This document shows, piece by piece, positions 32,099 through 51,811 of a stretch of 64,000 nucleotides of DNA (its first letter is position 1; every line of letters starts with the position of its first letter). The stretch is from NCBI GenBank assembly GCA_050331735.1, contig JBHJGN010000049.1:1-64000 (forward strand), written 5' to 3'. A program made the translations under genes and the position numbers. Source of the DNA: Cyanophyceae cyanobacterium (GTDB lineage: Bacteria; Cyanobacteriota; Cyanobacteriia; Cyanobacteriales; JBHJGN01). Under the pieces are notes generated by a model, which ran no database searches, had not been told where the DNA came from, and saw only the letters and a program-made list of their open reading frames with translations.

Positions 32099-32102
32099 AC
32101 CA

Positions 32103-32558: not shown

Positions 32559-32575
32559 AGCCGCAGGAGAGACCC

Positions 32576-33280
32576 GTGAGAAGAAGACGACAGCGACAAA
32601 CAATTTATCCCAGCCAGAACCTAGACTCGTTTTTAGATATTCTCACCAATACAGTTGGGGTACTAATGTTTATCGGTCTGTTCGTCGCCCTGGTTTCTGC
32701 GGAAGCTGGCAATATTATTCAAACGCCGCTCGTGACGAATAGCGCTAAATTTCCGCATTTTTTTGAGGTGAGAGATGACCAGGTTGTCTATGTCGATCAT
32801 CAAACAATCGATCAACAGGTCGATCGATTGCTAGCCTCTTTGCCTGCCTGTCGCCGGCCTGAAGATACTTTCTCAGATGCAGATTCGTATTTCTACGAAT
32901 ACTATATTCAGCAAATGCAGCAGTATAATAACTGCCTGCAAAACAAGATAGAACAGCTAGAAACGATTCGGTTTGAAACCGCTCACTACCGGGTCAAGTT
33001 TGTCAATCTCGATTCATTACTGTACGAGCCAATAGAGTCAGCCCCAGGAGAAACTCCCGAAGAGCTGTCTCAAAAGGGTTCAGAGTTTAGCACGATTTTG
33101 AAGCAGCTAGATCCGATCAATGATTATCTAGCGTTTGTGGTGAGGCCCGATAGTTTTGATGCGTTTAGAAAAGCGAGAGCCCAGGCTAGACGAGCTGGGT
33201 TTGAAGTTGGCTGGGAGCCGTATCAAGAGGAAACTCCGATTGTCTTTGGCTCTGGTGGTCGCTCGATTGGAGTCCAGTAA
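32576..33280 (+). CDS. ExbD/TolR-like single-pass membrane protein (channel Asp retained)
   Basis: GTG start after AGGAG; 'NLDSFLDILTNTVGVLMFIGL' TM; C-terminal 'YLAFVVRPDS...VGWEP' paralogous to the preceding gene. Confidence 0.7.
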   Translation: MRRRRQRQTIYPSQNLDSFLDILTNTVGVLMFIGLFVALVSAEAGNIIQTPLVTNSAKFPHFFEVRDDQVVYVDHQTIDQQVDRLLASLPACRRPEDTFSDADSYFYEYYIQQMQQYNNCLQNKIEQLETIRFETAHYRVKFVNLDSLLYEPIESAPGETPEELSQKGSEFSTILKQLDPINDYLAFVVRPDSFDAFRKARAQARRAGFEVGWEPYQEETPIVFGSGGRSIGVQ

Positions 33281-35346: not shown

Positions 35347-37362
35347 TTATTCATAGGCTTTGACAGAGGCTGACAGTTTCTGTCGCTGTCGCTTGAGCAT
35401 GGTACTGATGCCAAAACCAGCGAGCATCAGCAGACTAACAACCGCCGAAGGTTCGGGAACAGTAGTGGGTTGAGGGTCAGAAGGATAAGGGTTGTCCACT
35501 AAGTTTGTCAACCCAGAACCATCGGCTTCTACCCCAATTTCAGCGATAAAATCCTGGAAATAGCTGTCTAGAAAGTCTGCCATTTCCTCATCAGCGGGGG
35601 AGCGATCGCTCGGACTATCTGGCACGACCTCTAAGTTATTTAAGGTTGTCCCTGAACCGCTAAACTCTTGTAATTCCCCGGATGCAGCGTCTAGTTTCGT
35701 TAACCAAGTATCAAAAGACCCGACGTTCGTTGCTCCTAAAGATCCCCCGGTGATTCCGGTCGCGTATAGGTTGCCAGCGTTGTCTGCCGTAATGCCGTAG
35801 GCTTGCTCCAGTTCAGCCGTGCCAAACTGCTGGATCCAAGCCTGATTGCCATCGGTATCAAAGAGAGTCGCCCAAGCATCGAAAGAGCCAGCATTGTCTC
35901 CCTCTAAGCTACTGTTGGTATAGCCGGTGAGGAAAATATTGTCGTCGGCATCGATGAACAGGTCAAAGGGTTCGTCGTCGCCGGAAGTGCCAAACTGTTG
36001 AATCCACTGCTGGTTTCCCAACTCGTCATACTTAATCAGCCAGACATCATAGGAGCCAGCATTATCGCCCCCTAAGTTGCCCAAAGTCCAGCCGGTCGCA
36101 TAGACGTTCCCTTCGCTGTCGGTATCCACTCCCCAGGCCCACTCGTAATCCGTCGTACCGAACTGCTGAATCCAGTTTAAGTTGCCATCGTTATCTAGCT
36201 GAGACACCCAGGTATCGTAGAGTCCGGCGTTTTCTCCTTCTAGGTCGCCATAGGTCCAGCCAGTGGCATAAACATTACCATCGCTACCAACCGTCACTCC
36301 ATAGGATTCGTCGTAGTCTTCGACCCCAGGCACATCAGGAGTTCCAAAGAGGGTCAGCCACTGGCGGTTGCCGTTGGTGTCATATTTGGCGACGATAACA
36401 TCGTCGGTGGCAATATCTGCCGACGCTTCAACCCTTGTTCCCGAGACGTAGGCATTGCCCTCCTGGTCAACGTCAATGCTAAAGGTTTGCTCAATGACTT
36501 CTTCCCCAAACTGCTCTAGCCACTGCTGATTGCCATCGCCGTCGAATTTACCGATCCAGGCATCGTAGACTTCGGCTTGCCGGGGGCTGGCCAACTCGCC
36601 TTGGGTAATTCCGGTGAGAAAGAAGTTGCCTTGGTCGTCGGTGGCAATGTCGTAAGCGGTGTCGAAGCGGGAACTCCCAAACTGTTTCGCCCAAAGCTGA
36701 TTGCCTTGGTTATCGTATTTAGCAACCAGCACATCCCGCAGCCCAGAGTTTTCTTCGACTGCACCATTTGTCCCTCCTGCTATATAAATATTGCCTTCGG
36801 GATCGGTTGCCGTACCGAGACTGAGATCGTAATCTGTTGACCCTAATTGCTGCGCCTGATTCAAGACTGGTCCGGGGGGGGGAGACTCTCCTTCATATTG
36901 AAAGGAGTTACTCTCCAGGTCGAGATTAGACCCTCCGAGAATAAAGCCGACCACATCAGGGACATCCTGTTGCAGATATACGGCTGAACCGACTCCAACC
37001 TCTAAAAGTTGGTAATTATTTGAAGTTCCATGAAGCTCAACGGTATCCTCTCCGGCATTAAAGTCGGCAATAAAACCAAAGTTGTTTAAACCAAAGCTGT
37101 CTGGATTCCCGTTCGCGTAATAGGGTTGGGTCCAGTCACCAAGGACAAACGTATCATTCCAGGTTCGGAAAGCCGGGTCTTCAAAAGCAAGGTCGCCGAG
37201 GAAAATATCTACCTGGAGCTCGTTGGGATTAGCAGGCATAGATTGCTCGCCGAGAAAGGTGTCGTTACCAGTTCGACCGTAGATAATTTGACTAGGCACA
37301 AAGCCTGCGGCCACGTCGCTACCTGGATTGTAGGTTTGGACGGTAAATAGTTCTTCTTCCAT
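35347..37362 (-). CDS. CylK/BrtB-like alkyl-halide-using alkylating enzyme (RTX-like N-domain + seven-blade SBBP beta-propeller) with C-terminal PEP-CTERM
   Basis: N-domain 'IIYGRTGNDTFLG..DIFLGD..WNDTFVLGDWTQPYY..DFNAGEDTVELHG' resembles the CylK N-domain as recalled; seven 'GNxYxxGxT..DxWxxKxDxxGNQxWxxQFG' repeats; 'VPEP'-TM-basic tail; AAGGAG RBS; located beside a CylC-type halogenase cluster. Confidence 0.8.
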   Translation of the reverse strand: MEEELFTVQTYNPGSDVAAGFVPSQIIYGRTGNDTFLGEQSMPANPNELQVDIFLGDLAFEDPAFRTWNDTFVLGDWTQPYYANGNPDSFGLNNFGFIADFNAGEDTVELHGTSNNYQLLEVGVGSAVYLQQDVPDVVGFILGGSNLDLESNSFQYEGESPPPGPVLNQAQQLGSTDYDLSLGTATDPEGNIYIAGGTNGAVEENSGLRDVLVAKYDNQGNQLWAKQFGSSRFDTAYDIATDDQGNFFLTGITQGELASPRQAEVYDAWIGKFDGDGNQQWLEQFGEEVIEQTFSIDVDQEGNAYVSGTRVEASADIATDDVIVAKYDTNGNRQWLTLFGTPDVPGVEDYDESYGVTVGSDGNVYATGWTYGDLEGENAGLYDTWVSQLDNDGNLNWIQQFGTTDYEWAWGVDTDSEGNVYATGWTLGNLGGDNAGSYDVWLIKYDELGNQQWIQQFGTSGDDEPFDLFIDADDNIFLTGYTNSSLEGDNAGSFDAWATLFDTDGNQAWIQQFGTAELEQAYGITADNAGNLYATGITGGSLGATNVGSFDTWLTKLDAASGELQEFSGSGTTLNNLEVVPDSPSDRSPADEEMADFLDSYFQDFIAEIGVEADGSGLTNLVDNPYPSDPQPTTVPEPSAVVSLLMLAGFGISTMLKRQRQKLSASVKAYE

Positions 37363-38209
37363 CTTTCGCTCCTTCGTTTAAATCTGATTAAGAAAAGTCG
37401 GTATTTTGGCCAAAAAAATGGGATGAGGCGCTTTTGTGTGGTTTGCTCTTTTAAGCAAAGCCTTAATAATGTTTCAAATAACCACAGCAAACTTATCCTG
37501 CTTCTCCCCTGAAGCAAATACGCATGGATGCGTTGGTAGCAATCGAAGCTACGGGTGTTGCTGAAGTCGGTTCGTGCCTCGTTAAGAGTCAGCGCGCTTC
37601 TATATATAGTGCTATCTTGAAGTCTTCTTCGCCGTTGGTATCTTCGCGTACAGTCACCAGGGCGGCGATCGCTTTTACTAGTAGAATCAAACTAAGCAGC
37701 GAGCAGCTTAACTGCTAGTTCCGTTAAGCTCAAGCGCTTGAGAATTAGCGGCTCCGGTATCAGGCGAAACTGGTTTCTACTATTGCTTACTATCCGCTTA
37801 TTTAAGCAAGACTAAACTAGCGCCGAATTGCCTAAAAAGACTGGCTCCTTTAGCGTTTTATCAGCACGTCAGCACTAGTGATGGTGTTTCTAACGACTTG
37901 AAGCCAACCTTTAGCTGTTGCCGGACAAAAAAGGTGAAAGAAAGCAGATTAAGCATGATGTTTTTCTCCTGTAATATTGCATTCGCAGGGTGTTTTTGAA
38001 ATCCTCAACGAATGGAAATGCAATCTACAGTATTCATAACTTCTATCTCGCTCAGCGCACAAGTCGCTTTTGTCAGGTAGTTGTTTTTGTTTAGCTTGTT
38101 TATACTACTCTATTTATGCGACTTGCCTCTTCAGAGCTTCGCGATAAACTAACAATTACACTGAATTTTTTTTCACGCTGACTGTCGATTACACTCAAAT
38201 TTTTCTTAG

Positions 38210-39085
38210 ATGAATAATTACTCTCAACATTCTCGTTTGAGCTGCGTTCTCGATCCTGCCCTCGGTTTGTCCCGCTTTGGGGTTTATCTGGTGGAAAACC
38301 TGGGAGAAACGATGGAATTATGGGTGGGACGAGAATTTTGGAACGTGATTGGCAATCCTAATTTTTACCAACAACGACCAGAGTTAGTGCTTCCCAAAAA
38401 AGCTTTTTCTCAAACTACCCATGAAGAATGTGCTGCTATAGAAGAAACGTTATGGTCTCTTCAGCAGTGGGAAAAACTCAAAAAGAAAACTGATCTGGCA
38501 AGGCTTAATTTGCACTGGATTGGAGATAGTCTACAAGAATCGTATTTGCCTAAAAATATTGCTCTAGAAATATTTTGGCGCTGGGAATTTTTAGCGCGAT
38601 CGCTCGATGCTGAACTGAGCCACCATACTGATGAAGTCATGTCTCTTGCTTTTCGAGATACGGCAGCACTTGCTGCCAGTTTGGGGCCTGCATTCGTGTT
38701 AACCTACCAATCCCCGGAGAACGTGGCTCATAACACGCCCCCGGATATTTGCGTTGCTCTAGAAAACTGGGGCATTCCTTGCCATGCTCTTACCCAGGAG
38801 CAAACGATGATTGAAGAGCGAAATTATTTTCGCCAAATTCTGATTCGGAGTGGTTTGACTAAACTTTTTTGGACAAATCTGCACTTTATCGTTTTACATT
38901 TTGTTGCCCCTGCTGTATCTGCCTATTCCGGCTTCAGAGAGGATGAGCCAATTCAAGTATCTACTAATATTTCTACTAGCAAACCTGAGCGAACACTTAT
39001 ATCCCCAGACGAACTTCTCAAGAATCTAGAGTCAAAAAAATATTCTTGGCAGAACATTGAAGCATTTTGGTATCCGTTATCGTGA
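38210..39085 (+). CDS. Hypothetical protein, possibly a degenerate PIN-like fold
   Basis: 291-aa ORF; 'SCVLDP', 'LWVGREFW', 'RDTAALAASL', 'FVLTYQ' spacing resembles PIN-domain elements. Confidence 0.7.
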   Translation: MNNYSQHSRLSCVLDPALGLSRFGVYLVENLGETMELWVGREFWNVIGNPNFYQQRPELVLPKKAFSQTTHEECAAIEETLWSLQQWEKLKKKTDLARLNLHWIGDSLQESYLPKNIALEIFWRWEFLARSLDAELSHHTDEVMSLAFRDTAALAASLGPAFVLTYQSPENVAHNTPPDICVALENWGIPCHALTQEQTMIEERNYFRQILIRSGLTKLFWTNLHFIVLHFVAPAVSAYSGFREDEPIQVSTNISTSKPERTLISPDELLKNLESKKYSWQNIEAFWYPLS

Positions 39086-39376
39086 AGAGTCGCGTTCTTA
39101 GCGCATCGATTTAGCTATGTAAATGTAGCGATTAGGTTGTGTTTAATGGAAATAAACAGCTACTAAAGCCTAGTTATTAATAATAGCAAATGATAAACTA
39201 GTTTCACAAATGCAATTGCTTTAAATTAATTGTTTTACAATTTTTCTTACCTCTTCAGTTTTTCAAAACAAAGCCATACTTTTCTCAGGTATTTATCTTA
39301 CTAAAATAGAAATGACAATGCTATTTTTTAGGTAAAATATGTTTAAACTCCGTGCAAAGTTTTTTAGAAATTATGC

Positions 39377-39883
39377 TTGTCTACTTTGTTTAATGCCATG
39401 AATGATTCATCCAGTCGAGACACTGCTTGTTTAAAATCGGCGGCTCAACTTTCAAGATCGAGAATTGTTGACGGTTTCCAGGTTGAAGACTCCCGATTTT
39501 TAATTGTCTCCTGCCAGGATATTCCAGAACAACATCAACATATTAGAACTATCGTTTTTGATGATTCTGCTTGTTGTGCGGTGGTCGATCGTCTTGAAAT
39601 TGGCAAAAAACATTATTTAGTTGTAGAGGCACAAATAGACTTCGTCCATAATTACTCTAATCTTTCTGAGCTTTTGACAGACAGAGAGTTGCAGATTGTT
39701 GCCTTTGTTGCTCTAGGATGGTCTAACAAGCAGATCGCTAAACGGCTAGAGATTAGCGAGTGGACTGTTTCTACTCACTTACGGCGGACTTTCATTAAGC
39801 TTAATGTAGATAGTCGTGCTGCAATGGTGTATCGCTGTGCTCCTCTTATTCAGGGAATATTGCAAGAACAAGCAGTGTATTAA
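39377..39883 (+). CDS. LuxR-family HTH transcriptional regulator without a receiver domain
   Basis: C-terminal 'LTDRELQIVAFVALGWSNKQIAKRLEISEWTVSTHLRRTFIKLNV'; start may be ATG 39398. Confidence 0.88.
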   Translation: MSTLFNAMNDSSSRDTACLKSAAQLSRSRIVDGFQVEDSRFLIVSCQDIPEQHQHIRTIVFDDSACCAVVDRLEIGKKHYLVVEAQIDFVHNYSNLSELLTDRELQIVAFVALGWSNKQIAKRLEISEWTVSTHLRRTFIKLNVDSRAAMVYRCAPLIQGILQEQAVY

Positions 39884-39912
39884 AGAATACTCGCAATTCT
39901 TTAATACACTGC
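39872..39912. terminator. Perfect 17-bp inverted repeat over the luxR stop codon; probable terminator between the convergent luxR and methyltransferase genes
   Basis: GCAGTGTATTAAAGAAT (39872-39888), 7-nt loop, ATTCTTTAATACACTGC (39896-39912). Confidence 0.7.
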
Positions 39913-40137: not shown

Positions 40138-40932
40138 TTATTCAGGATATATTGAAGTTAAATTTGTGCTATTTGGTCTGGCAGTTACTAATAGTTGAGG
40201 CATAGAAACGCCACCTCTGAAAATAAAGTCCCGCAAAATCCACCATCCTCTCCAAGTAGCAAACACGCGCAGCGCCGGTTTGGCTGACGGATAGAGTTGT
40301 CTCCAACGGAGAAGGTCAGCGCGAGACAAAAACCAATCATCGCAGCGGTAGAGGTCAACCGAGAATCTTGCTTTCTTAAGCAGCGCAAACACATCCCCCT
40401 GACTAAAGGCGTGGAGGTGATAGGGATCGATATGTCGGGTTTCACCAAGAGGTGCAGAAAGCAACAGATCTCCCTCTGGAACTAAAAGGTGGTGAATACG
40501 CTCGAGGAACTTGTTAGGATGGGGAACGTGTTCTATCGTCTCAAAAGAAACAACAACATCGAACGGCTCTGACCAATTAAACTGCTCTGCATCGGCGCAA
40601 ACAAATTCTAGGTTGTCCTCCTGATAGTTCTGCCTAGCATACTGCACCGTCTCTGGACACACATCAACTCCCACTACGGTCTGTGCACCAGCAAGGCATA
40701 ATATCTGGCTGCCGTACCCCGTACCGCAGGCAATATCAAGAACTCGTTTTCCTTTCACATAGCGTGCCGCCGTTTTATAGCGCTCAAAGTGAATATTAAA
40801 AATTTTTTGACTAGCCGGATCGTTCTGGGTCTTTTTGGGAATAAAGCGTTCCCAGGTCACGGTGAGAGCCTGGTTGGAGAGCACTACTGAGTTATACTGG
40901 TCTGCTTGTTCTTGGGGGATTTTGTCTTGCAT
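40138..40932 (-). CDS. Class I SAM-dependent methyltransferase (probable O-methyltransferase)
   Basis: 'HFERY', motif I 'VLDIACGTGYG', 'FDVVVSFETIEH', 'PYHLH'. Confidence 0.9.
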   Translation of the reverse strand: MQDKIPQEQADQYNSVVLSNQALTVTWERFIPKKTQNDPASQKIFNIHFERYKTAARYVKGKRVLDIACGTGYGSQILCLAGAQTVVGVDVCPETVQYARQNYQEDNLEFVCADAEQFNWSEPFDVVVSFETIEHVPHPNKFLERIHHLLVPEGDLLLSAPLGETRHIDPYHLHAFSQGDVFALLKKARFSVDLYRCDDWFLSRADLLRWRQLYPSAKPALRVFATWRGWWILRDFIFRGGVSMPQLLVTARPNSTNLTSIYPE

Positions 40933-41069: not shown

Positions 41070-42287
41070 TTAATTAAGGTTGACACGACGATTAGCAGCC
41101 AGGCCGTTTAATAAATGCTGATAGTAGTGATGAAGCTTTTGACAGCCTTGCTCGACCGAAAACTGCTTGGCATCTTGCAATGCTCGCTGAGTAATGTCTG
41201 TAGTGTTGCTGGCTAAAACCCTTTCTAAGCAGTTCGCTAACTCTTCGACGTTATCAGGGGGAGCAAGATAGCCGTTGACGCTATCAATTAGATAGTCCGA
41301 TACGGCACCGCTATTGACCGTGACGACCGGAATGCCGGATGCCATGGCCTCTACTATCGTGAGTCCAAAGGTTTCATAGGGAGAAGGACTACAGAAAACA
41401 TCACCGGACGCTAAAACATTCGCCTTCGTTTCTCCGAGCAGAAAACCGGTAAAGTGAATATTAGAAATAGGTGCGGCTAGGCGTTTTAAGTGTTTAACCA
41501 CCTCATCAGGACCATCTCCGACAATGAGCAAAGCACAGTTAGGGTGAGATTGTTTGAGGAGGGCAAAGGCTTCGATGAGCAAATCGACTCGTTTTTCAAA
41601 GCCAAGACGACCTAAAAAAAGCAAGACTTGGCGATCCTCACTTCCTAGCCACGGTTCCAAGTGTTTCCGATGCCGACGCTCTGGAGAATAGGTAGAAATA
41701 TCAGTTCCGAAGAAAGGAATGACTTCAGTGTTCTGGATGCCCATTGCTTGGCAGCTTTGAGCCGCCGCCTGACTCGGACATACGGTGACATCGAGCTGAT
41801 GATAGAGATAGCTGGGAAGTCGCAAGCGACTGAACAAACTGCGCAACCACTGCCAGCCAGGATAGGTCTCGGAAAAATTGTAGACATCCGTATGGTACTC
41901 GGCGATGTAGGGAATGTGCTGCGAGTTCGCATAGCGCTGTCCCGGTAAATGCCACGCACTCAACAAAAAAAACCGCTCTACGTCTGTTGTTATAATCAAA
42001 TCCGGCTGATAATCCGCCAGCTTTCGGCTAATCTGGCGAGCGGCGGCTATGGTTGGGACATAGGTAAGTTTGTAGGGCAGCCAGGGTTTTGAACGGTAGC
42101 GTTCAACGGTCAGCTCTGAATCGGCTTCAGGGGATGCCGCTTGCCCATCTGGGGCAAACACCACGACCCGATATCCGTGCTGGGCCAACCACTGCACTCG
42201 CGCCCAGTTAAATAGAGCAGAACCACTCACTTCTGGAGGAAAAGCAGTGACAAGGAAAACAAGAGTATAAACGCGATCGAGGCTCAT
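41070..42287 (-). CDS. GT4-family (GT-B) glycosyltransferase
   Basis: Start reassigned to ATG 42287; 'FPPEVSG', 'YHTD', 'GRLGFEKR', 'ETFGLTIVEAMASG'. Confidence 0.92.
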   Translation of the reverse strand: MSLDRVYTLVFLVTAFPPEVSGSALFNWARVQWLAQHGYRVVVFAPDGQAASPEADSELTVERYRSKPWLPYKLTYVPTIAAARQISRKLADYQPDLIITTDVERFFLLSAWHLPGQRYANSQHIPYIAEYHTDVYNFSETYPGWQWLRSLFSRLRLPSYLYHQLDVTVCPSQAAAQSCQAMGIQNTEVIPFFGTDISTYSPERRHRKHLEPWLGSEDRQVLLFLGRLGFEKRVDLLIEAFALLKQSHPNCALLIVGDGPDEVVKHLKRLAAPISNIHFTGFLLGETKANVLASGDVFCSPSPYETFGLTIVEAMASGIPVVTVNSGAVSDYLIDSVNGYLAPPDNVEELANCLERVLASNTTDITQRALQDAKQFSVEQGCQKLHHYYQHLLNGLAANRRVNLN

Positions 42288-42321
42288 GGCTTGTATAAAA
42301 GAAACGTTAACTGATTCAGCT

Positions 42322-45300
42322 TCATATCCTCCTAGCCGCGACTGGAGCCGAAATAAACCCACTGCGGACTAAGTACGAAAAATAAGTGTCAAGCAAGCGA
42401 AAATCGAGAGGAGGGCAATCAATATTAGAGTCAGCTAGAGCAGCCAGCGTTGCTTGACAGCCGATTTTGGGTCTTTTATCTTGCTGATTCAGCTCAATAT
42501 AGGTGAGGTCATCAAGCCAGCGATGCACAAAAAACGGCAGCAGCGGATAGAGGGGATTGTCTCGACTATCGTTGAGCTTGGCTTGCCAGTTGGAATACGC
42601 TTCGCGATCTATGGCATAGCCAAAGAAGCGCATAAACTCGCTCAATTGGCTCCAGTGGAGCGGTGACGGGTTTTGCAGGTGAAATGCCTGACCAAAAGAC
42701 TGCTTCTGCTTTGACAAATAGACGATCGCCTGAGCGACGTAATCTACTGGCGACAGATCTAAGAGCACGTCGAGATCTGCCATACTGCCCATCTGAATAC
42801 AGCCTTTGATCATGCGGCATAAAAAGCCACTAGTATTCCAAACGCCCGTGCGACTGTGCCCAGAAATCAACGGAGGGCGGTAGATACACATCGGCAGTCC
42901 GCGCTCACCGGCCTTTGTTACCAGCCTTTCCGACACCCACTTACTCTGAGAGTAGCCGAGGTAAATGCCCTCGCTTGGCACTACCAAGTCGGCTTCCGTG
43001 ACCGCTTTGCCATAAAAAGCCGATGACTCAAACACCGCTACGCTGGAAACATGATGAACTGGTTTTATCCTGTCGGTAGTAGCTAATTTCAGGACTTCTT
43101 GAGTTCCGAGAACATTGATCGATTTCAGTCTGGAGTAGGGATAGACATAGCTCAAAAACGCTCCATTGTGGTAGATCGTCTCGATATGAGCGGCTAAGTG
43201 TTGCCACTGGTCGTTAGCCAGACCCAGTTGCGGCTGAGCGAGATCGCCCACCACCGGAACGATTCTCGCCCTGAAATCTTGCTGCCAGAGAGCGTAGGTG
43301 GCCAAATTTTGTTGCAGCCTTAGATAACCGGACTCGGCATCGGCAGTACGCACTAAACAGTAGATGTCGGCTTGAGTTTGCTGAAGGAGTTCGTAGAGTA
43401 AAAAGGCTCCTAAAAAACCGGTGGCTCCGGTTAATAAAACTGCCGTCGGTTCAGTAATCAGCTCAACGGGGTCCGTCCCCGGAGCAATGGTCCGCTCTAG
43501 AGTCGCTTCAGCGTCCAAATCCACCTCATTGACAACCGCCGTCGGTTTTCCCGGTGTTAGCTGCTCGGTTAAGAGGGTCAAGAGGTTAGCAACGCTCGGC
43601 TCCTCGATGAACGCTCGAATCGGTAGCTCCGCCTGGAGCTGAGTTTGCACTGCGTTTCTGAGATCCACCGCCATAAGCGAGTCGAAGCCCAAATCTTGAA
43701 GAGACTGATGGATATCGATCTCAGCGGGGGCTACCTCCAGCAGCTTCGCCACCTGACCTTGAATGTAGGTGGTTAACAGGTGAGAGCGATCGCCCTCGTC
43801 AGCCTCCTGCCACTGGGATAAAATCGACCGCTGGTTTGATGCCGCTGCCTGGGTCGGACTCACTAGTTCAGCTAACAGGGGTAGCTGAGTCCCAGCGCCA
43901 AACTGCTGCTGAAACGCCGACCACTCGAACGGCAGCACCGCCACCTGCGGCTCCAGTCCCAGCACTTTAGCCAGCGCCTGCAAACCTTGCTCTGGAGCAA
44001 TCGTGCTGCCCTGGGTTACTTCCCCATAGCGGCTACTGAGCTTCGCTGCCATCCCGCCATCGCTCCACGGTCCCCAGTTAATGCTTAACCCCGGTAGTCC
44101 GAGGAAACAGCGATAGTGGGCTAGCGCATCCAAAAAGGCATTGGCGGCAGCGTAATTGCCTTGACCGGGCGAACCTAGCACCGAGGCGGCGGAGGAAAAC
44201 ATCACAAAGAAATCGAGCGGCAGGTGTTGAGTCAACTGATGCAGATTCCAGGCTCCTTCAACCTTCGGTGCTAGCACTCGACTAAACTGCTGCCAGTCCT
44301 GGTGCAGCAGAATTCCATCATCAAGCACTCCCGCCGCATGAATCACCCCACGCAGAGGCGGCAGGGAGGTTTGCATCTCGTCAAAGAGGGCGTTCATGTC
44401 CGAGCGATCGCTAACATCCGCCTGAACCACGCGCACCTCGGCTCCTCTAAGCTGGTTGAGAACCTCCTGAACCGACGGAGAAGCCCCCCGACGACTGGTG
44501 AGTACCAGATGCTGCACTCCCCGCTCTACCAGCCAGCGAGCCACCCTCAAACCTAAAGCCCCTAAGCCCCCCGTGATTAAATAAGTTCCGTCTGAGCGAA
44601 ACGGCACGGGGGGCGAATCGCTCAGTTGACGGCGCACCAAACGAGCGACATAAAGCTGTCCTTCCCGACACGCAATCTGTTCCCCCAGCAAGTCCATCGC
44701 TGCCAACAGCATTTCCCCCTCATCAGCGGACGGTTCGGGAGCTAAATCGATCGTGCCTCCCCAGAGTTCAGGGTGTTCTAGGGCAATAACTTTTCCCAGT
44801 CCCCCCAGCGGCGCTGGCGAGAGTTCTGGCTGAGTCCCCACTGGGACCGCTCTCGTCACCAACCATAGCTGAGCAGCAGTGAAGCGACCGTGTTTGACCA
44901 ATGCCTGCACTAAATAAAGGACGCACCCGCAGCCCCAGGTTTTTGGCTGCTCCCCAGACCAAATCGGTAAATTTTCCAGATATTCCTGGCCAGTCCACAG
45001 GTAAACAATGCTGAGCGGTTCTTGACTAACTGCCGATAGCTCTTGAAACAACCGCTCAAAATCTTCTCGCCGAGACGGATTGAGATAATAAATACCGTTC
45101 TGGTGCTGATAGGTTTTTCCCGGATAAACCAGAAAACACCGTTGTCCCTGCTGAGCAATGGCTGGTCCGGTTCCGGCATCATCAGCGAAAATGAGCCAGT
45201 TGCTCCCGTCTCGTTCTGAAGCTACTGGACGCGGCTGAGGCTGCCACTCTATCTGATAAAACCAGTCTTGAAGCGATGCCGTTTGCTGTTGCTCGCTCAG

Positions 45301-48069
45301 CAAATTTAGCAGCTTAGGCAACACTTTCGCCTCATCCGCTGATAGTTGGCCGGTCGCGAGCAGTTGCTGTTCGATTGAGCGGCGTTCGTCTGTGGGGAGC
45401 GCTAGCGAGGAAGCCTGACGATGACCATTCGCCTCTTTAAACCAGTAGCGCTGTCGCTGAAAGGGATACGTTGGCAGCACGACGCGACAACGGTGATAGT
45501 CTCGATCGAAGCCCATCCAGTCTACCGCGACTCCCCCCACATAGAGCTGCGCTAAACTTTGCAGAAGCGTTTGCCAAGGCGAACGCCTCGGCTCTAAACT
45601 AGCCAACCACCTCAATGGGGTGTAAGTGTTGCCGTCATTTTCGACCGCTAAACGTCCCATTCCCGTCAAAATTGGCTTGGGACCGCATTCTAAACCGATA
45701 TCAGCTTGGGCTTGCAGCACCTTGATGCCGTCCGCAAATCTCACCGGCTGGCGCAGGTGACGACACCAGTATTGCGGAGTGGCAATTTCTGCGGTGGCCA
45801 AGGCTCCAGTCACGTTGGAGATCAGCTTAACGGTCGGAGGGAAGTAGGTGACTTCCGAGGCCACCGCCTCGAAATCCGCCAGCATCGGCTCCATCAACGG
45901 AGAATGAAAGGCATGGGAAACCGTCAGGGGTTTCGTCTTGATTCCCTGGGCGGTGAGGGTTGCTCTGACGGCCTCAACGGACTTGCTCCGGCCAGAAATA
46001 ACCACGCTACGGGGTCCATTGAGCGCCGCGAGGGCAACTTGAGGGTAGGGAGCGATCGCTGCGGCCACCTGCTCGGCCCCGGCCATCACCGCTACCATCG
46101 CTCCATTAGCAGGAAGCGCCTGCATCAGCCGACCCCGAGCAGCAATCAGCTTCAAGCCATCTTCAAGGCTGAATACTCCGGCAAGACAGGCCGCGACGTA
46201 TTCCCCAACGCTGTGACCCATGACTATGGCGGGTTTGATGCCCCAAGCCATCCACATCTGCGCGAGGGCGTATTCCAGGGCAAAGAGAGCGGGTTGCGTG
46301 TAGGCGGTCTCGTCGAGCAGGGCGGAGGGTTGTTGAGGATACAGCAGCTCCAGTAAAGCATAGTCTAAGTAAGGGGCGAGGATAGTAGCACAGCGGTCGA
46401 GGGCGGCGCGGAAGGTGGGTTGAGTTTCGTAGAGCTGCTGACCCATACCGACGTATTGAGACCCCTGTCCGGTGAATAAAAAGGCAATTTTGGGACGCTT
46501 TTTGCTGGTGAGATGACCGCTAGCTAGCTCCGCTCCCGTTGCAAACGCTTCGAGAGCCGTGCGTAGCTGGGCCGCATCTGTGGCGGGGACCGCTAAGCGA
46601 TGGTTAAAGTGCGCTCGCCCGGTATTGGCCGTAAAGCACACATCGGCGATCGCCTCCTCCTGAGCGACAACGGCATAGCGCTGCGCTAATTCTTTCAGAG
46701 CGTCTGCACTCTTAGCAGAAAGGGTCAGCAGATGCAGCGGACGATCACAGTGACCTGCCTTCCGCCGATCAACCTTATTCGCGCTGGCGGGAACTTCCGG
46801 TGCCGCGGCTAACACGGCATGGCAATTTGTGCCTCCAAAGCCAAAGGCGCTGATGCCTGCTATCCGCTCGGGAGTATTCCAACGTTGATTCTCGGTGGGA
46901 ATGCGAAAGGAAGCTTCTAGGGTAATGTACGGATTGAGCTGCTGAAGGTGGAGATGAGGCGGAATCTCTCGATGCTGAAGCGCCAGCACCACCTTAATCA
47001 GGCTCGCCAGCCCTGCTGCTGCTTCCAGATGCCCAATATTGGTCTTCACCGAGCCAATCCAGCAGGGCTGATCCGCTTGGCGACCTTCCCGCAGGGCAGC
47101 CTGAATGAATTCCGCTTCGATCGGATCTCCTAAAGCGGTTCCGGTGCCGTGAGCTTCCACGTAGCTAATCTGCGCGGGAGCCACGCCCGCGCTGTCTAAA
47201 GCTTGACGAATCACTCGCTGCTGCGAAGGACCGTTGGGAGCCGTCAACCCATTGCTCAACCCATCCTGATTGACTGCTGAGCCGCGAATCACGGCCCGAA
47301 CGGTGTCTCCATCTCTGAGGGCATCCGAGAGACGCTTGAGGGCGATCGCCCCGCCGCCTTCTCCCCGCACATAGCCATCGGCCCGCGCGTCAAAGGTCTT
47401 ACAGCGACCGTCACTTGCCATCATGCGGGCTTGAGAATAATTAATCGTTGGCTCCGGCGACAGCATCAGGCTCACTCCCCCCACTAAGCAGAGCTCCGAC
47501 TCTCCCTGACGCAGACTTTGACAAGCGACGTGTACCGCCACCAACGACGAGGAGCAGGCCGTTTCTACCACCATGCTGGGTCCGCGCAGATTCAGCAGAT
47601 AGGACAGCCGATTCGCTGCGATGCACAGAGTATTCCCGGTGCCATCGTAGGCACTAATTTGGTTCAAATCCTGCGCCAGCAAGCGACCGTAATCGTAATT
47701 CCCAATGGCAATAAATACTCCTGTTTGACTGCCAGACAGCGTTTGAGGCGCAATTCCCGCATCTTCTAAACACTCCCAGGCCACCTCTAGCATCAGGCGC
47801 TGCTGCGGGTCGAGGCGCTCTGCTTCGCGGGGAGAAATATTAAAAAAACCAGGGTCGAACTGATCTACCTGCTCCAGAAATCCGCCCCAGCGCGTATTCA
47901 TCTTTCCAGGAGTGGCTGGTTCCGAAGCATAGAAAGCATCGACATCCCAGCGATTTCCTGGCACTTCCGTAATGGCATCGCCACCGCTCTGCAAAAGTTC
48001 CCAGAAAGCTTTGGGGTTGCTCGCTCCCGGAAAGCGACAGCCCATTCCAATAATTGCTATAGGTTCCAC
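42322..48069 (-). CDS. Single-module type I PKS: KS-AT-KR-ACP-thioester reductase
   Basis: KS 'TACSSS', 'EAHGTGT', 'NIGHLE'; AT 'GHSVG' + 'HAFH' (malonyl); KR 'GGLGALG', 'LDD', 'YAAAN'; ACP 'GFDSL'; R domain 'TGATGFLG', 'YSQSK'; GTG start after GAGGAG. Confidence 0.95.
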   Translation of the reverse strand: MEPIAIIGMGCRFPGASNPKAFWELLQSGGDAITEVPGNRWDVDAFYASEPATPGKMNTRWGGFLEQVDQFDPGFFNISPREAERLDPQQRLMLEVAWECLEDAGIAPQTLSGSQTGVFIAIGNYDYGRLLAQDLNQISAYDGTGNTLCIAANRLSYLLNLRGPSMVVETACSSSLVAVHVACQSLRQGESELCLVGGVSLMLSPEPTINYSQARMMASDGRCKTFDARADGYVRGEGGGAIALKRLSDALRDGDTVRAVIRGSAVNQDGLSNGLTAPNGPSQQRVIRQALDSAGVAPAQISYVEAHGTGTALGDPIEAEFIQAALREGRQADQPCWIGSVKTNIGHLEAAAGLASLIKVVLALQHREIPPHLHLQQLNPYITLEASFRIPTENQRWNTPERIAGISAFGFGGTNCHAVLAAAPEVPASANKVDRRKAGHCDRPLHLLTLSAKSADALKELAQRYAVVAQEEAIADVCFTANTGRAHFNHRLAVPATDAAQLRTALEAFATGAELASGHLTSKKRPKIAFLFTGQGSQYVGMGQQLYETQPTFRAALDRCATILAPYLDYALLELLYPQQPSALLDETAYTQPALFALEYALAQMWMAWGIKPAIVMGHSVGEYVAACLAGVFSLEDGLKLIAARGRLMQALPANGAMVAVMAGAEQVAAAIAPYPQVALAALNGPRSVVISGRSKSVEAVRATLTAQGIKTKPLTVSHAFHSPLMEPMLADFEAVASEVTYFPPTVKLISNVTGALATAEIATPQYWCRHLRQPVRFADGIKVLQAQADIGLECGPKPILTGMGRLAVENDGNTYTPLRWLASLEPRRSPWQTLLQSLAQLYVGGVAVDWMGFDRDYHRCRVVLPTYPFQRQRYWFKEANGHRQASSLALPTDERRSIEQQLLATGQLSADEAKVLPKLLNLLSEQQQTASLQDWFYQIEWQPQPRPVASERDGSNWLIFADDAGTGPAIAQQGQRCFLVYPGKTYQHQNGIYYLNPSRREDFERLFQELSAVSQEPLSIVYLWTGQEYLENLPIWSGEQPKTWGCGCVLYLVQALVKHGRFTAAQLWLVTRAVPVGTQPELSPAPLGGLGKVIALEHPELWGGTIDLAPEPSADEGEMLLAAMDLLGEQIACREGQLYVARLVRRQLSDSPPVPFRSDGTYLITGGLGALGLRVARWLVERGVQHLVLTSRRGASPSVQEVLNQLRGAEVRVVQADVSDRSDMNALFDEMQTSLPPLRGVIHAAGVLDDGILLHQDWQQFSRVLAPKVEGAWNLHQLTQHLPLDFFVMFSSAASVLGSPGQGNYAAANAFLDALAHYRCFLGLPGLSINWGPWSDGGMAAKLSSRYGEVTQGSTIAPEQGLQALAKVLGLEPQVAVLPFEWSAFQQQFGAGTQLPLLAELVSPTQAAASNQRSILSQWQEADEGDRSHLLTTYIQGQVAKLLEVAPAEIDIHQSLQDLGFDSLMAVDLRNAVQTQLQAELPIRAFIEEPSVANLLTLLTEQLTPGKPTAVVNEVDLDAEATLERTIAPGTDPVELITEPTAVLLTGATGFLGAFLLYELLQQTQADIYCLVRTADAESGYLRLQQNLATYALWQQDFRARIVPVVGDLAQPQLGLANDQWQHLAAHIETIYHNGAFLSYVYPYSRLKSINVLGTQEVLKLATTDRIKPVHHVSSVAVFESSAFYGKAVTEADLVVPSEGIYLGYSQSKWVSERLVTKAGERGLPMCIYRPPLISGHSRTGVWNTSGFLCRMIKGCIQMGSMADLDVLLDLSPVDYVAQAIVYLSKQKQSFGQAFHLQNPSPLHWSQLSEFMRFFGYAIDREAYSNWQAKLNDSRDNPLYPLLPFFVHRWLDDLTYIELNQQDKRPKIGCQATLAALADSNIDCPPLDFRLLDTYFSYLVRSGFISAPVAARRI

Positions 48070-48245: not shown

Positions 48246-49595
48246 CTACTGATGCATAGAGCGAGAAAACTGCTTAAACGCCTTAACGTTGTTTTGCAGA
48301 GCTTGCTCAATCGAGCCTCCAGCAGCCATCAGGCGCATCTCTCGATTGACAGCCCACAGGTAGTCAACCCCGTCGAAGAAGCGGCGCAGATCGCTCAGCA
48401 GACGCTGATGATACTTAAGATTGATGTGAAATCCTTCGTGTTCTTGACACAAACATCTTTCTAGCCAGTACAGTGAATCTTGGGCAGAGAGATTAAAGAG
48501 CGGAGACTGAAGTAGCTGATAAAACGAGAGCATAAAGGGAGCATCATGTTTGCAGATAGCCGGCAGTCCACCCGAAAGACCATTGAGACTCACCTTTTGC
48601 ACCCGATAGATAGTGAGGTTAGCAACGAATTTTTCGTAGGCCGTCGGTTTAGAGAAGTCTTTATAGAGCTCTTTCCCAATCAGTTGAGAGGTGGTGGTGT
48701 GGAAAGATTCATCTAAAAGATGATAGTAGGATACCGCTGTTGGCACCGGAATAAACTCGCCAGCCTTCTCCAATTTTCGGTAGTACTGAACGTAGCGGTA
48801 TTCATAATTTTTGAGCAGCAGGTTAGCGATATAGCGCGTGACGTAGAACAGGCAGGCTAAGAAGGGGGAACTGCCGCAGTTTAACGTGAACAACTGCTGT
48901 ACTGAGCGGGGGGCTAATTGTCCGAGCAACCCCGTTGTTTGGGCTGGCAGCTTTTCCCCTTTAAGGTCCAGTTCTCGCAGGTACTGAGAATAACAATGGC
49001 CGGGTCTTAGCATTTGAGTCGTGAAGAAGCGAAAGGTAGATTCCTGGAGCGACTCGAATGGCTGCTGAGGCGCTATTCCTCTAGCAATCTGCTCGGTTCG
49101 TCTACCGTGACTAGCGGTTTTTAAGTCAGATCTTCCGAGTAGGGCTCGTTTTGTTTTCGATCCAATTCTTTGAAAGGCATGAATATGGGAGTATTCTTGC
49201 TCGGTTTCTAGCTGGAGCTCCTGGCAGAGGGTATCGTACCCGCCCAAGCTGGCGAAAACACCCGCCGTTACCTGATTGTAAAGCACTGCATTGGCTTCGG
49301 TTGCCGCCGTTTGGCTGTATTGCCTCATCCAGTAGAGATGGTTGAGTGCTCGTTGTTGTGAGGGGGAGGCTTCTACGTATAGCGGAGTGCCATAGAGGGT
49401 AGAAAGTTCCGGAGGACTCCAGTAATCATTAGCGTTATGAGCGTAGCTAAAGCTTTTCTCCAGCTCCTCTATTCTTTCGGTGTAGTCGGAATCAACGTTG
49501 CGCTGATAGGTAATTTCCGTTAGTTTGACGTGTTTTTTGACTCCCTGAGAGGAAGATGACAATTGGTTTTGAGGAGAGACAAGAGTATTGAGCAT
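48246..49595 (-). CDS. CylC-type dimetal-carboxylate halogenase (AurF-like ferritin fold)
   Basis: 'YWSPPELSTLYGTPLY', 'LNHLYW', 'EANAVLYN', 'ETEQEYSHIHAF' (ExxH), 'HLLDESFH', 'HEGFH'; directly after FAAL-ACP, as in cyl/col/brt-type clusters. Confidence 0.85.
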   Translation of the reverse strand: MLNTLVSPQNQLSSSSQGVKKHVKLTEITYQRNVDSDYTERIEELEKSFSYAHNANDYWSPPELSTLYGTPLYVEASPSQQRALNHLYWMRQYSQTAATEANAVLYNQVTAGVFASLGGYDTLCQELQLETEQEYSHIHAFQRIGSKTKRALLGRSDLKTASHGRRTEQIARGIAPQQPFESLQESTFRFFTTQMLRPGHCYSQYLRELDLKGEKLPAQTTGLLGQLAPRSVQQLFTLNCGSSPFLACLFYVTRYIANLLLKNYEYRYVQYYRKLEKAGEFIPVPTAVSYYHLLDESFHTTTSQLIGKELYKDFSKPTAYEKFVANLTIYRVQKVSLNGLSGGLPAICKHDAPFMLSFYQLLQSPLFNLSAQDSLYWLERCLCQEHEGFHINLKYHQRLLSDLRRFFDGVDYLWAVNREMRLMAAGGSIEQALQNNVKAFKQFSRSMHQ

Positions 49596-49640: not shown

Positions 49641-49943
49641 TTATGATTGGTCTTGGCAGTCTTGAGCAATGCGCTCAGCTAACGCCTCAATGGTGGGGTA
49701 GTTATATAGCAGAGTCGGATTGAGTTTCCGCTCGAGCCAGTCTTCCAAATCTCCAGAGAGTTCAACAGCCTCCGCAGAATCAAGACCGTATTGCTCAAAC
49801 GGAAGCGTTACATCAACCTGTTCTGGCTCTTCTTCTAGCAGTTCGGCTAAATAGTTCACGATCCAGGTTTGAATGTCTTCGGGTGAAGGAGATTTCTGGG
49901 TGGGGACTGAAACCGTTGATGGGGCGTTATTCGGTTGATTCAT
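49641..49943 (-). CDS. Stand-alone acyl carrier protein
   Basis: 'IQTWIVNYLAELL', phosphopantetheine site 'YGLDSAEAV', 'PTLLYNYPTIEALA'. Confidence 0.93.
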   Translation of the reverse strand: MNQPNNAPSTVSVPTQKSPSPEDIQTWIVNYLAELLEEEPEQVDVTLPFEQYGLDSAEAVELSGDLEDWLERKLNPTLLYNYPTIEALAERIAQDCQDQS

Positions 49944-49984: not shown

Positions 49985-51811
49985 TTAGTGCTTCGATCCG
50001 GGGCTGGGGGAGAGTTGCCGGAATACCGCCTCGACCTCAGCTTGCAAATGCAAAAACTCGGCTTTATTCTGAGGATTTTCGCTCCAGTCCTCAACAACAT
50101 TCAGAGTGCCGTTGAGAAATCCAGAGAGACAGGCGTACCGCTGAATTTTGCCGCTGGTTGTCCTTGGAATACTGCCAGTTTTCACGAGGACGGTGGCGTA
50201 AACCTTCAGATCGTGCTGCACGTTGACAGCTCGACGAATACTATCAACGACGTCTTTCACGTTGAGCTTGCGGAGGTAGCTGCGCTTCACTTCCTGCACA
50301 ATGACCAACCGTTCTGTCCCTTTAATGGCTGCGGCAACCGCTGCCCCACAGTTGGGTCGTAGGGCGGGATGACTGTTCTCAACCGTTAGCTCAATATCTT
50401 GGGGATAGTGGTTTTGCCCGCGAATAATGATGACATCCTTAATTCTGCCAGTGATGAATAGCTCGTCATTTCGTAAAAATCCGAGGTCTCCAGTCCGCAG
50501 AAACGGTCCTGCTCCCGTGGCTAGATGAGCCTGAAAATCCCGCTGGGTTGCGTCGGGGCGTTGCCAATAGCCCTGGGCCACGCTCGGTCCCGCGACCCAG
50601 ATTTCTCCCACTTGGTTTGCCGGACTCGGCATCAACGTGTCGGGGTCAACGATCAGGAGGTTTTGGTCCGTTAAGCTCCGACCGCAGCCAACGAGGGCTT
50701 GGCTCTCTGGGGCAGTGCTTAGTACTACTTGGTCTTGCTCGAGGGCCGCTCTCTCTACCGAGCAAATGACGGGCGGCGCCGTTTTTTCTCCGCCAGAGAC
50801 GATCAAAGTCGCCTCTGCCATGCCATAGCAGGGATAAAAAGCTTCTTTGCGGAAGCCGCAGGGCGCAAACGTAGTCGCAAAGTTTTCTAGGGTTTGAGCG
50901 CGAACGGGTTCAGCCCCAACAAACGCTACCTCCCAACTGCTCAGGTCCAGACTTGCGCGCTGCTGAGCAGTAATTTTACGCACACAGTAATCGTAAGCAA
51001 AATTAGGAGCACCGCTGATCGTTGCTTGAAGGCGAGAGATAGCCTGAAGCCACCGGAGCGGTTTTTGCAGAAAATCTACGGACGACATCAGGGTGACGGG
51101 AAATCCGGCGTAGAGGGGCTGCAGTAATCCGCCGATCAAGCCCATATCGTGGTAAGGCGGCAGCCAGATTACTCCCTGAGTCGAGGGTGAATGAGCAAAG
51201 TACTGTTCGATGAGGTTGAGGTTGTGCATGAGGTTGCGGTGACTCACCATCACCCCCTTTGGCGTTCCCGTTGAACCCGAGGTGTATTGCAAAAACGCAA
51301 TCTCGGATTTGCGGGGTTTTGCTTCCCAAGTTCCTGCCTCGTGGGGGGTGAGGTGAGCTGTCGTCAGCCAACGCAGTTTCGCTAACTCTGAATTTTCGGG
51401 AAACCACCGCTCTATACTGGTAAATAATGAGGGTGTGGTGAGAGCAACAACCGCCTGAGCATCGCCGAGAATGGCCTCCAGCCTAGCTAAGTTTTGATTG
51501 CGGCGAGGCGGATAAGCCGGAGTAGCGATCGCTCCGGCATACAAACACCCAAAGAAAGCCGCAATAAACTCTAACCCAGACGGATACAGCAGCAAGACTG
51601 GTTTTCCGGTCGCGCCGGCTTCGAGAAGAGCGGCGGCGATCGCTCGAGCCTGTTCGTCTAATTCTCCATAGGTCAGTTTCCCAACCTCTTCTCCCTGCTG
51701 CAAAAATACATAAGTTTTTTGGTCGGGCTGACTCTGCGCTCGAGCGCGCAGTACGTCTACTAAACTCCCGACGGGCTTGCCTGGGCGCGAATAGTCGCAA
51801 TAAGCCGTCAT
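49985..51811 (-). CDS. Fatty acyl-AMP ligase (FAAL)
   Basis: 'FLQYTSGSTGTPKGV', 'WLPPYHDMGLIG', 'YGMAEATL', FAAL-type insertion, 'LRTGDLGF', 'IPRTTSGKIQR'. Confidence 0.93.
   Translation of the reverse strand: MTAYCDYSRPGKPVGSLVDVLRARAQSQPDQKTYVFLQQGEEVGKLTYGELDEQARAIAAALLEAGATGKPVLLLYPSGLEFIAAFFGCLYAGAIATPAYPPRRNQNLARLEAILGDAQAVVALTTPSLFTSIERWFPENSELAKLRWLTTAHLTPHEAGTWEAKPRKSEIAFLQYTSGSTGTPKGVMVSHRNLMHNLNLIEQYFAHSPSTQGVIWLPPYHDMGLIGGLLQPLYAGFPVTLMSSVDFLQKPLRWLQAISRLQATISGAPNFAYDYCVRKITAQQRASLDLSSWEVAFVGAEPVRAQTLENFATTFAPCGFRKEAFYPCYGMAEATLIVSGGEKTAPPVICSVERAALEQDQVVLSTAPESQALVGCGRSLTDQNLLIVDPDTLMPSPANQVGEIWVAGPSVAQGYWQRPDATQRDFQAHLATGAGPFLRTGDLGFLRNDELFITGRIKDVIIIRGQNHYPQDIELTVENSHPALRPNCGAAVAAAIKGTERLVIVQEVKRSYLRKLNVKDVVDSIRRAVNVQHDLKVYATVLVKTGSIPRTTSGKIQRYACLSGFLNGTLNVVEDWSENPQNKAEFLHLQAEVEAVFRQLSPSPGSKH

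Follow-up and report, generated by a model that had tools for sequence, protein, structure and literature searches.

A predicted CylK-family enzyme with a PEP-CTERM-type tail, encoded near a chlorinated-glycolipid-type gene cluster in a cyanobacterium

Introduction

CylK-type enzymes form a small family of coupling enzymes that displace the chloride of chlorinated lipids. To our knowledge they are among the few enzymes for which an alkyl chloride serves as a built-in leaving group, and no more than three members have been characterised. Here we describe a predicted member of this family encoded on a 64,000-nucleotide stretch of DNA, hereafter the window, from a Cyanophyceae cyanobacterium (assembly GCA_050331735.1, contig JBHJGN010000049.1, positions 1 to 64,000). 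The gene (35347..37362, minus strand, as are all features below unless marked otherwise) encodes a 671-residue protein whose C-terminus resembles a PEP-CTERM sorting signal. A sequence-only reading of this DNA had proposed an enzyme tethered at the cell surface, which would use C–Cl bonds as pre-activated envelope linkers, polymerising exported chlorinated glycolipids or attaching them to hydroxyls of the sheath or of exopolysaccharide (EPS).

Among the closest described systems is that of NglO (Npun_F3370) from Nostoc punctiforme, which polymerises the chlorinated glycolipid nostochloroside A by etherification (Nat Chem 2024, PMC10849952). The ngl cluster, also known as the polyketide synthase (PKS) cluster pks3, encodes a fatty acyl-AMP ligase (FAAL), a glycosyltransferase and homologues of CylC and CylK, and its products, the nostochlorosides, are chlorinated glycolipids with 6-O-methylgulose that include fatty-acid ester adducts (PMC10849952). 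According to the same account, deletion of nglO alters two surface traits, aggregation and motility, the nucleophiles used within the family are varied (carbon, carboxylate oxygen and hydroxyl oxygen), and the active sites of NglO and CylK are hydrophobic and unlikely to admit sugars. BrtB, of the bartoloside pathway in Synechocystis salina, attaches free fatty acids to dialkylresorcinol glycosides as esters; it is reported as the second most abundant exoprotein, is also present in the outer-membrane fraction, and is described as exploiting the C–Cl bond, at the envelope, for chemistry that requires no activation (mBio 2026, PMC13712857). CylK itself, from Cylindrospermum licheniforme (PDB 7RON/7ROO/7FH6), makes C–C bonds to resorcinol (eLife 2022, PMC8916777). 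Its Arg105 and Tyr473 are reported as the halide-binding pair needed for catalysis, and the Asp440 position is tied to nucleophile activation; BrtB has Glu at that position and Arg at the position of Glu374 (PMC8916777), and in NglO a Glu acts as the base at the Asp440 position (PMC10849952).

PEP-CTERM signals combine a PEP motif, approximately 14-18 hydrophobic residues and a basic cluster at the very end of the protein. In the exosortase model, Sec export is followed by removal of the signal peptide, anchoring through the PEP-CTERM helix and processing by the exosortase (PMC12188702), and signal peptides were found in 97% of PEP-CTERM proteins after re-analysis of their start sites (Haft 2006). 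Exosortase systems have been linked to EPS (PMC12188702; Haft 2006), and their clients include biosynthetic enzymes: ScyD, ScyE and ScyF of the scytonemin pathway are PEP-CTERM proteins that rely on cyanoexosortase B (mSphere 2025, PMC12188702).

Results

The protein has the fold and conserved residues of CylK

A Pfam scan of the protein returned seven stretches of SBBP (E 1.2e-36) and no other notable match. When PDB sequences were searched with phmmer, four distinct sequences were matched, all of them CylK (E 8.8e-139 to 8.5e-136), and the alignment takes in both domains, with query residues 25-242 paired to residues 100-325 of 7fh7_A in addition to the propeller. An AlphaFold2 (AF2) model built on 54 homologues has a mean predicted local distance difference test score (pLDDT) of 87.1 and a predicted template-modelling (TM) score of 0.87, with pLDDT below 50 only at residues 1-3 and 630-671. 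The top five Foldseek entries for this model are all CylK; the superposition on 7roo spans 581 columns at 43% identity, with TM scores of 0.78 (query) and 0.81 (target) and a root-mean-square deviation of 2.6 Å, and the next match after the CylK entries is a designed propeller with a query TM score of 0.28. The two-domain architecture of the family is present, namely an N-terminal domain of the Ca2+-binding type, assigned by alignment (approximately residues 1-165; 36868..37362), which contains Arg30 (codon 37273-37275), and a seven-bladed SBBP β-propeller (approximately residues 166-575; 35638..36867), which contains Glu352 (36307-36309) and Tyr382 (36217-36219). The CylK-like N-domain and seven blades of the sequence-only reading, and the structural match to CylK for which it called, are thereby borne out. 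Relative to CylK, to which the protein is 42-43% identical, approximately 75 N-terminal residues of chain 7fh7_A have no counterpart and approximately 95 C-terminal residues are extra. The protein contains no cysteine, 110 acidic (D+E) against 19 basic (K+R) residues, and 11.8% glycine. A LipL53-type or generic SBBP lipoprotein was rejected: NF047494 reached 198.6 bits, short of its cut-off of 400, and the protein has the N-domain specific to CylK together with the catalytic residues.

Residue equivalences with CylK were taken from HMMER alignments, Foldseek supplying scores only. Arg30 (IIYGR) pairs with Arg105 of CylK (IIWGR) and Tyr382 (AGLYD) pairs with Tyr473 (AGEYD), so that the assignment of this pair in the sequence-only reading is correct. 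A second search with residues 243-400 gave a colinear alignment in which YDESYG stands opposite LDDNWG of CylK, and the alignments place Glu352 at the Asp440 position, Tyr350 at Leu438, Gln292 at Glu374 and a further tyrosine at Trp442. Arg30, Glu352 and Tyr382 do not vary in any of the 54 homologues aligned. In an alignment of 34 proteins, made up of the window protein and 33 others from named genomes, all 34 keep Tyr382 and an acidic residue at position 352, and 33 keep Arg30, the remaining one being truncated at its N-terminus. We take the protein to be a member of the CylK/BrtB/NglO family, with a predicted chloride-displacing activity.

Four substrate-side positions were compared across the 34 proteins. 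At the positions of E374, L438, D440 and W442 of CylK the window protein reads Q-Y-E-Y, and together with the proteins of glycolipid-type clusters it conforms to a pattern of Q/S/N, F/Y, E and Y. Five Nostoc/Calothrix proteins, which belong to cyclophane-type loci, show E/D, L, D and W as in CylK, and Arg at the first position is confined to four loci of Pleurocapsales type. These three classes (Gln/Glu-type, CylK-type and Arg-type) track the gene content of the surrounding clusters (loci L018-L021, L030, L033-L035 and L037), and such signatures might predict the class of nucleophile from sequence. No type III PKS (CylI, the partner of CylK) and no dialkylresorcinol genes were found by Pfam among the 44 window open reading frames (ORFs) scanned. 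Because of this absence and the Q-Y-E-Y signature, we infer that a hydroxyl nucleophile, as in NglO, would be favoured over resorcinol or a carboxylate.

A conserved PEP-CTERM-type tail

The propeller is followed by an acidic linker (residues 576-632; 35467..35637) with a predicted helix at residues 592-608 and a conserved NPY motif before the tail. The linker has no family match in Pfam or NCBIfam scans, and its block-mean pLDDT in the AF2 model ranges from 56 to 91. Across 24 homologues with the same type of tail (see below) F602 is invariant, conservation is at least 90% at P625 and Y626, and the linker otherwise varies in sequence and length. The confidently predicted helix, with F602 and the NPY motif, could serve in recognition or secretion.

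The sorting signal itself (residues 633-662; 35377..35466) comprises TTVPEP, the 18-residue hydrophobic stretch SAVVSLLMLAGFGISTML and the basic cluster KRQRQK. It ends nine residues (LSASVKAYE) before the stop codon, these and the stop occupying 35347-35376. The tail quoted in the sequence-only reading is present, at coordinates that differ slightly from the span 35347-35460 given for it there. TIGR02595, whose cut-off is 16, matches residues 635-659 with 16.0 bits (E 0.017). When the genome was scanned in six frames, the tail scored 19.6 bits at 35383-35460, and 35 matches exceeded the cut-off. This model is short and also finds matches in 7 of 14 control genomes, in two of them above the cut-off, so more weight was placed on conservation. 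The 24 tailed homologues all have P636, and E637 is conserved to at least 90%, next to a variable linker; this retention of VPEP, hydrophobic stretch and basic residues appears to be stronger evidence for a sorting tail than the score of the hidden Markov model (HMM). The match at cut-off and the conserved motif uphold the earlier naming of the tail as PEP-CTERM. The protein carries no repeats-in-toxin (RTX) sequences, with no HemolysinCabind match at E ≤ 1 and no GGxGxD motif.

Exosortases are present and a signal peptide is absent

The genome encodes cyanoexosortase A (CrtA; 319.4 bits, cut-off 150) and cyanoexosortase B (CrtB; 446.2 bits, cut-off 300), and an exosortase scored above cut-off in all five other genomes tested that contain a PEP-tailed homologue. 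This co-occurrence is weak evidence, because exosortases are common in cyanobacteria.

Signal peptides were called by a hydropathy heuristic of our own and not by SignalP. On this basis the window protein has neither a Sec nor a Tat signal peptide. Its N-terminus, MEEELFTVQTYNPGSD (MEEELFTVQ...), is acidic; the first 29 residues contain four acidic and no basic residues, the best ten-residue mean hydropathy is 1.33, and there is no hydrophobic core. In the AF2 model the N-terminus lies inside the fold, with a strand at residues 7-11, and RTX-tailed relatives begin with the same stretch. All 24 PEP-tailed homologues likewise have no signal peptide. In the genome, by contrast, 31 of 32 usable PEP-CTERM ORFs begin with a signal-peptide-like N-terminus, the window protein being the exception; three of the 35 TIGR02595 matches were dropped, one for want of a start codon, one that was not C-terminal and one that was an 83-residue ORF. 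An upstream start concealing a signal peptide was ruled out: only five further in-frame codons are open 5' of the ATG, a good Shine-Dalgarno-like AAGGAG (37369..37374) stands 6 nt 5' of it, and all homologues share the same N-terminus.

Two other ORFs of the window end in PEP-CTERM signals. A lipase/acylhydrolase of the GDSL family (8109-9221; Pfam 4e-24), with a clear signal peptide and its own tail of 21.3 bits, is another enzyme, rather than an adhesin, with exosortase routing. A 562-residue ORF without a Pfam family (10179-11867) has a PEP-CTERM end of 17.7 bits and a signal-peptide-like start 75 codons in, and the true gene is probably shorter.

Tails of different types recur across the family

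For a survey of tails, the 120 best of 858 homologues were classified by the pattern [VI]P[ED][PAS] followed by a hydrophobic stretch and basic residues. A PEP tail was found in 24 of these 120, and in 8 of the 33 CylK-like proteins from named genomes (Microseira, Coleofasciculus, Elainellales and others). In a FastTree phylogeny of the 120, sister proteins have RTX or type-I-secretion-like tails in place of PEP, and the PEP-tailed proteins form a grade beside clades that end in RTX repeats and a type-I-secretion-like C-terminus. The PEP label needs nine changes on this tree, at least seven of them forced by well-supported branches, against a mean of 22 for shuffled labels; the method is a quick one, the kept columns may include columns of the tail, and the 41 rows labelled 'other' include truncated proteins. 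A single origin of the tail was accordingly found to be unsupported. Among the 150 best matches in a library of 50%-identity representatives, most were multi-repeat SBBP proteins; 119 were dropped and 31 kept that had the CylK architecture, here one aligned stretch beginning before query residue 35 and spanning most of residues 1-570. One of the 31 has a PEP tail (P0147), as does a 516-residue protein outside them (P0139), although clustering at 50% identity merges PEP-tailed and RTX-tailed forms.

The PEP-CTERM fusion is thus recurrent in the CylK family, and the delivery modules seem interchangeable, which fits an extracytoplasmic workplace for these enzymes. The sequence-only reading knew of no characterised member with such a tail, and this agrees with the literature, in which NglO carries RTX, BrtB another C-terminal region and CylK ends soon after the propeller. 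A PEP-CTERM tail on a CylK-family protein appears to be unreported: in the literature searched no paper pairs PEP-CTERM with CylK, none of the papers listed couples an exosortase term to BrtB, NglO, nostochloroside or bartoloside, and both PEP-CTERM and exosortase are absent as terms from the BrtB envelope paper (PMC13712857). The survey of homologues suggested in that reading nevertheless showed that the fusion is not unique to this protein. A further class of tails (P0015, P0034, P0039 and P0050) is long and very basic and ends in K-S/L-W-C-K-Q, resembling neither RTX nor PEP-CTERM. Weak ScyE_fam matches were obtained for 7 of the 24 PEP-tailed homologues, and none at E ≤ 1 for the window protein.

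A compact gene cluster of glycolipid type lies upstream

Six genes on the same strand lie 2.8-14.4 kb upstream of the CylK-like gene. The first encodes a FAAL (49985..51811; Pfam AMP-binding 1.1e-72, the NCBIfam fatty-acid--AMP ligase models all scoring below their curated cut-offs). It is followed by a candidate for a small acyl carrier protein (ACP) of 100 residues, recognised in translation by GLDSAEAVEL (49641..49943), whose equivalent ORF in the related locus L016 matches PP-binding at 9.2e-16. The third gene, approximately 10.9 kb from the CylK-like gene, encodes a 449-residue protein (48246..49595) without a match in the copies of Pfam and NCBIfam used. Its nearest ESM Atlas clusters are 100% PF28091, CylC-like (feature score 0.97, structure TM score 0.88), which points to a dimetal-carboxylate halogenase of the CylC type, and orthologues of 50-65% identity adjoin CylK-like genes in other loci. 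A type I PKS module of 1915 residues with the order KS-AT-KR-ACP and a terminal reductase comes next (42322..48069; Pfam ketoacyl-synt, Acyl_transf_1, KR, PP-binding and NAD_binding_4), then a GT4 glycosyltransferase (41070..42362; Glycos_transf_1 4.3e-39) and an S-adenosylmethionine-dependent methyltransferase (40138..40932; Methyltransf_11 3.8e-21). With a halogenase, FAAL, ACP, PKS, glycosyltransferase and methyltransferase next door, a chlorinated glycolipid is a reasonable substrate for the window enzyme.

Between methyltransferase and CylK-like gene lies a segment of low guanine-plus-cytosine (GC) content (37363-40137; GC 0.386 for 38001-40000). It carries a LuxR-type regulator (39377-39883, plus strand) and a 291-residue orphan (38210-39085, plus strand), neither of which has a tblastn counterpart in 42 related loci. 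In L016 and a second related locus, L022, the methyltransferase gene directly precedes the CylK-like gene and the order CylC-PKS-GT4-methyltransferase-CylK is colinear; the low-GC segment is an insertion in the window. Orthologues of the PKS and GT4 genes lie within the 10-kb flank in seven of eight PEP-tailed loci, the eighth being a contig of 5.5 kb.

In both L016 (12118-18012) and L022 (12155-14191) the PEP-tailed CylK-like gene is followed by one for a 717-residue protein with 12 RTX repeat stretches, the two being 70% identical. In L016 this is succeeded by HlyD-type, MacB/FtsX-type and ABC ATPase genes, an arrangement resembling the glycolipid exporter DevBCA, and 5 of the 42 loci have a DevBC-like pair next to the CylK-like gene. 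The Pfam scan of the window found no EPS genes beside the CylK-like gene.

Comparison with NglO, BrtB, CylK and the Scy enzymes

NglO resembles the window protein as a CylK homologue within a cluster of FAAL, CylC, PKS and glycosyltransferase genes, in keeping the halide-binding Arg/Tyr pair, in having Glu rather than Asp as base and in carrying an extra C-terminal module past the propeller; the O-methylated sugar expected from the methyltransferase here has its parallel in 6-O-methylgulose. The two differ in this module, which is RTX in NglO, and the ngl cluster is larger (36 kb against approximately 12 kb), with further genes such as a sugar epimerase (PMC10849952). The N-terminus of NglO implied by the published cloning primers has no match among the N-termini of the best 120 of 858 homologues. 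BrtB is also O-alkylating and is described as acidic, glycine-rich, cysteine-free and without a signal peptide; its C-terminal anchoring region consists of a Pro-rich segment and a GS linker, not PEP-CTERM (PMC13712857). It has Arg where Gln292 stands, and dialkylresorcinol genes are part of its pathway and not of the window. CylK shares the two-domain fold (TM score ~0.8) and a CylC partner halogenase, and differs at all four substrate-side positions, where Glu374, Leu438, Asp440 and Trp442 are replaced by Gln, Tyr, Glu and Tyr. ScyD, ScyE and ScyF are likewise PEP-CTERM natural-product enzymes of cyanobacteria, and theirs is a late coupling step (dimerisation) outside the cytoplasm; they belong to another family with other chemistry and are modelled as Sec-exported with signal peptides (PMC12188702).

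Discussion

The reading we favour, with moderate confidence, is that the window protein acts last in a compact pathway to a chlorinated glycolipid, carrying out NglO-like O-alkylation at the cell envelope as an exosortase client. NglO-like chemistry is the likeliest because the neighbouring cluster resembles the ngl cluster. In such a pathway the FAAL and ACP would load a fatty acid, the CylC-type halogenase would chlorinate an unactivated carbon, and the KS-AT-KR-ACP-reductase module would perform one chain extension before reductive release as a hydroxylated fatty alcohol, to which the GT4 enzyme and methyltransferase would add an O-methylated sugar. The CylK-family enzyme would then hold the alkyl chloride through Arg30 and Tyr382, with Glu352 as base, and chloride would be displaced by oxygen, the nucleophile most likely being a hydroxyl group on another molecule of the glycolipid, giving ether-linked oligomers as NglO does with nostochloroside A. 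This coupling would need no ATP and would take place in the envelope, the PEP-CTERM signal anchoring the enzyme, outward-facing, in the cytoplasmic membrane as a client of cyanoexosortase A or B. Such a location is supported by the PEP-CTERM match, the exosortases, the RTX and type-I-secretion-like tails of sister proteins, the DevBCA-like exporter in L016 and the localisation of BrtB.

Several observations weigh against this reading. The absent signal peptide counts against simple surface tethering because the standard exosortase model requires Sec export first; the sorting signal proposed in the sequence-only reading holds up, and the genome encodes two exosortases. How an acidic domain of approximately 630 residues would be exported across the inner membrane is the puzzle of the PEP-tailed group. 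The TIGR02595 score of the tail, exactly at the cut-off, is borderline, and only 11 of the 24 tailed homologues reach E ≤ 1 in whole-protein scans. A low-GC segment of 2.8 kb, which carries two genes on the opposite strand, parts the CylK-like gene from the methyltransferase, and the window contains no glycolipid exporter, the six DevBC-like pairs of the genome all lying outside it. NglO and BrtB, finally, were compared through their published descriptions, residues and gene content.

The missing signal peptide bears most directly on the alternative in which enzyme and substrate are the same and the tail is a mere membrane anchor, or vestigial; with no signal peptide the catalytic domain would never be presented to an exosortase, and the enzyme would act on its lipophilic substrate at one face or the other of the cytoplasmic membrane. 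We regard this as possible, though doubtful. All 24 tailed proteins start without a signal peptide, the HMM score is at threshold, and CylK itself has no sorting tail. Conservation of the PEP motif goes beyond what hydrophobicity demands, however, and by the positive-inside rule the basic cluster after the helix predicts an outward N-terminal domain, so that KRQRQK argues against a tail anchor facing the cytoplasm. Sister proteins, moreover, have secretion-type RTX tails. BrtB, also described as without a signal peptide, is exported (PMC13712857), and the window protein is, like it, cysteine-free and very acidic.

As to the reaction, free fatty acids might instead be esterified onto the chlorinated glycolipid at the envelope, as BrtB does with its own substrates (PMC13712857); BrtB, too, has Glu at the Asp440 position (PMC8916777), and there are ester adducts among the nostochlorosides (PMC10849952). 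We think this unlikely in view of Gln292, which stands where BrtB has an Arg confined to four of the loci compared, of the lack of dialkylresorcinol genes in the window, and of a cluster make-up that matches ngl and not brt. Still less probable is that an exosortase-delivered enzyme alkylates hydroxyls of sheath, EPS or surface proteins with the chloro-glycolipid and so lipidates the envelope matrix. The link between exosortases and EPS (PMC12188702; Haft 2006), the aggregation and motility phenotypes of the nglO deletion and the variety of nucleophiles in the family (PMC10849952) would be in keeping with it, but no result points to a polysaccharide or protein nucleophile, EPS genes do not flank the gene, and the hydrophobic active sites described for NglO and CylK (PMC10849952) speak against sugars; the attachment to sheath or EPS hydroxyls put forward in the sequence-only reading finds no support here. 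A non-catalytic SBBP-repeat surface protein, finally, is what automatic annotation would make of the gene: homologues are named only 'SBBP repeat-containing protein' or 'hemolysin' in their sources, and there are generic SBBP proteins, such as P0179, that carry both a signal peptide and PEP-CTERM. The CylK-specific N-domain, the invariant Arg, Tyr and Glu and the conserved link to CylC-halogenase clusters make this highly improbable.

What is new here is of moderate extent, consisting of the PEP-CTERM delivery module on an NglO-like enzyme, the chemistry and the envelope concept being already known. Polymerisation of a chloro-glycolipid, as first proposed for this protein, is reasonable as regards substrate, and as a concept it had been published for NglO (PMC10849952); the C–Cl bond as a pre-activated linker at the envelope had likewise been published for BrtB (PMC13712857), and ScyD, ScyE and ScyF are a precedent for biosynthetic enzymes with PEP-CTERM. 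The most interesting loose end is the missing signal peptide, since a PEP-CTERM clade without signal peptides is an anomaly with respect to the accepted order of Sec and then exosortase. A conserved exosortase-tailed subgroup lends independent genomic support to the recent claim of CylK-type chemistry at the envelope, and exosortase mutants would offer a simple genetic handle on where the coupling step occurs. The compact FAAL-ACP-CylC-PKS-GT4-methyltransferase-CylK cluster recurs in many cyanobacteria, which predicts chlorinated glycolipids and oligomers that have yet to be isolated. More tentatively, the CylK family as a whole may consist of extracytoplasmic 'ligases without ATP', with repeated swaps between type-I-secretion/RTX and PEP-CTERM delivery. 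No PEP-CTERM client before the PEP-tailed group would then have been seen to reach its exosortase in the absence of a Sec signal peptide, and an undescribed way into the exosortase pathway would be implied. Energy would be spent inside the cell on installing the C–Cl bond, the chlorinated glycolipid would be exported, and an envelope-resident enzyme would polymerise or graft it outside.

Other features of the window

An Rfam scan of the whole window gave no matches. A MotA/ExbB-family protein of 464 residues is encoded on the plus strand (30704-33280), with a weak ZorA-type match of 24.5 bits against a cut-off of 100; two orphan ORFs (151 and 234 residues) come after its gene, and the three may form a proton-channel-based system.

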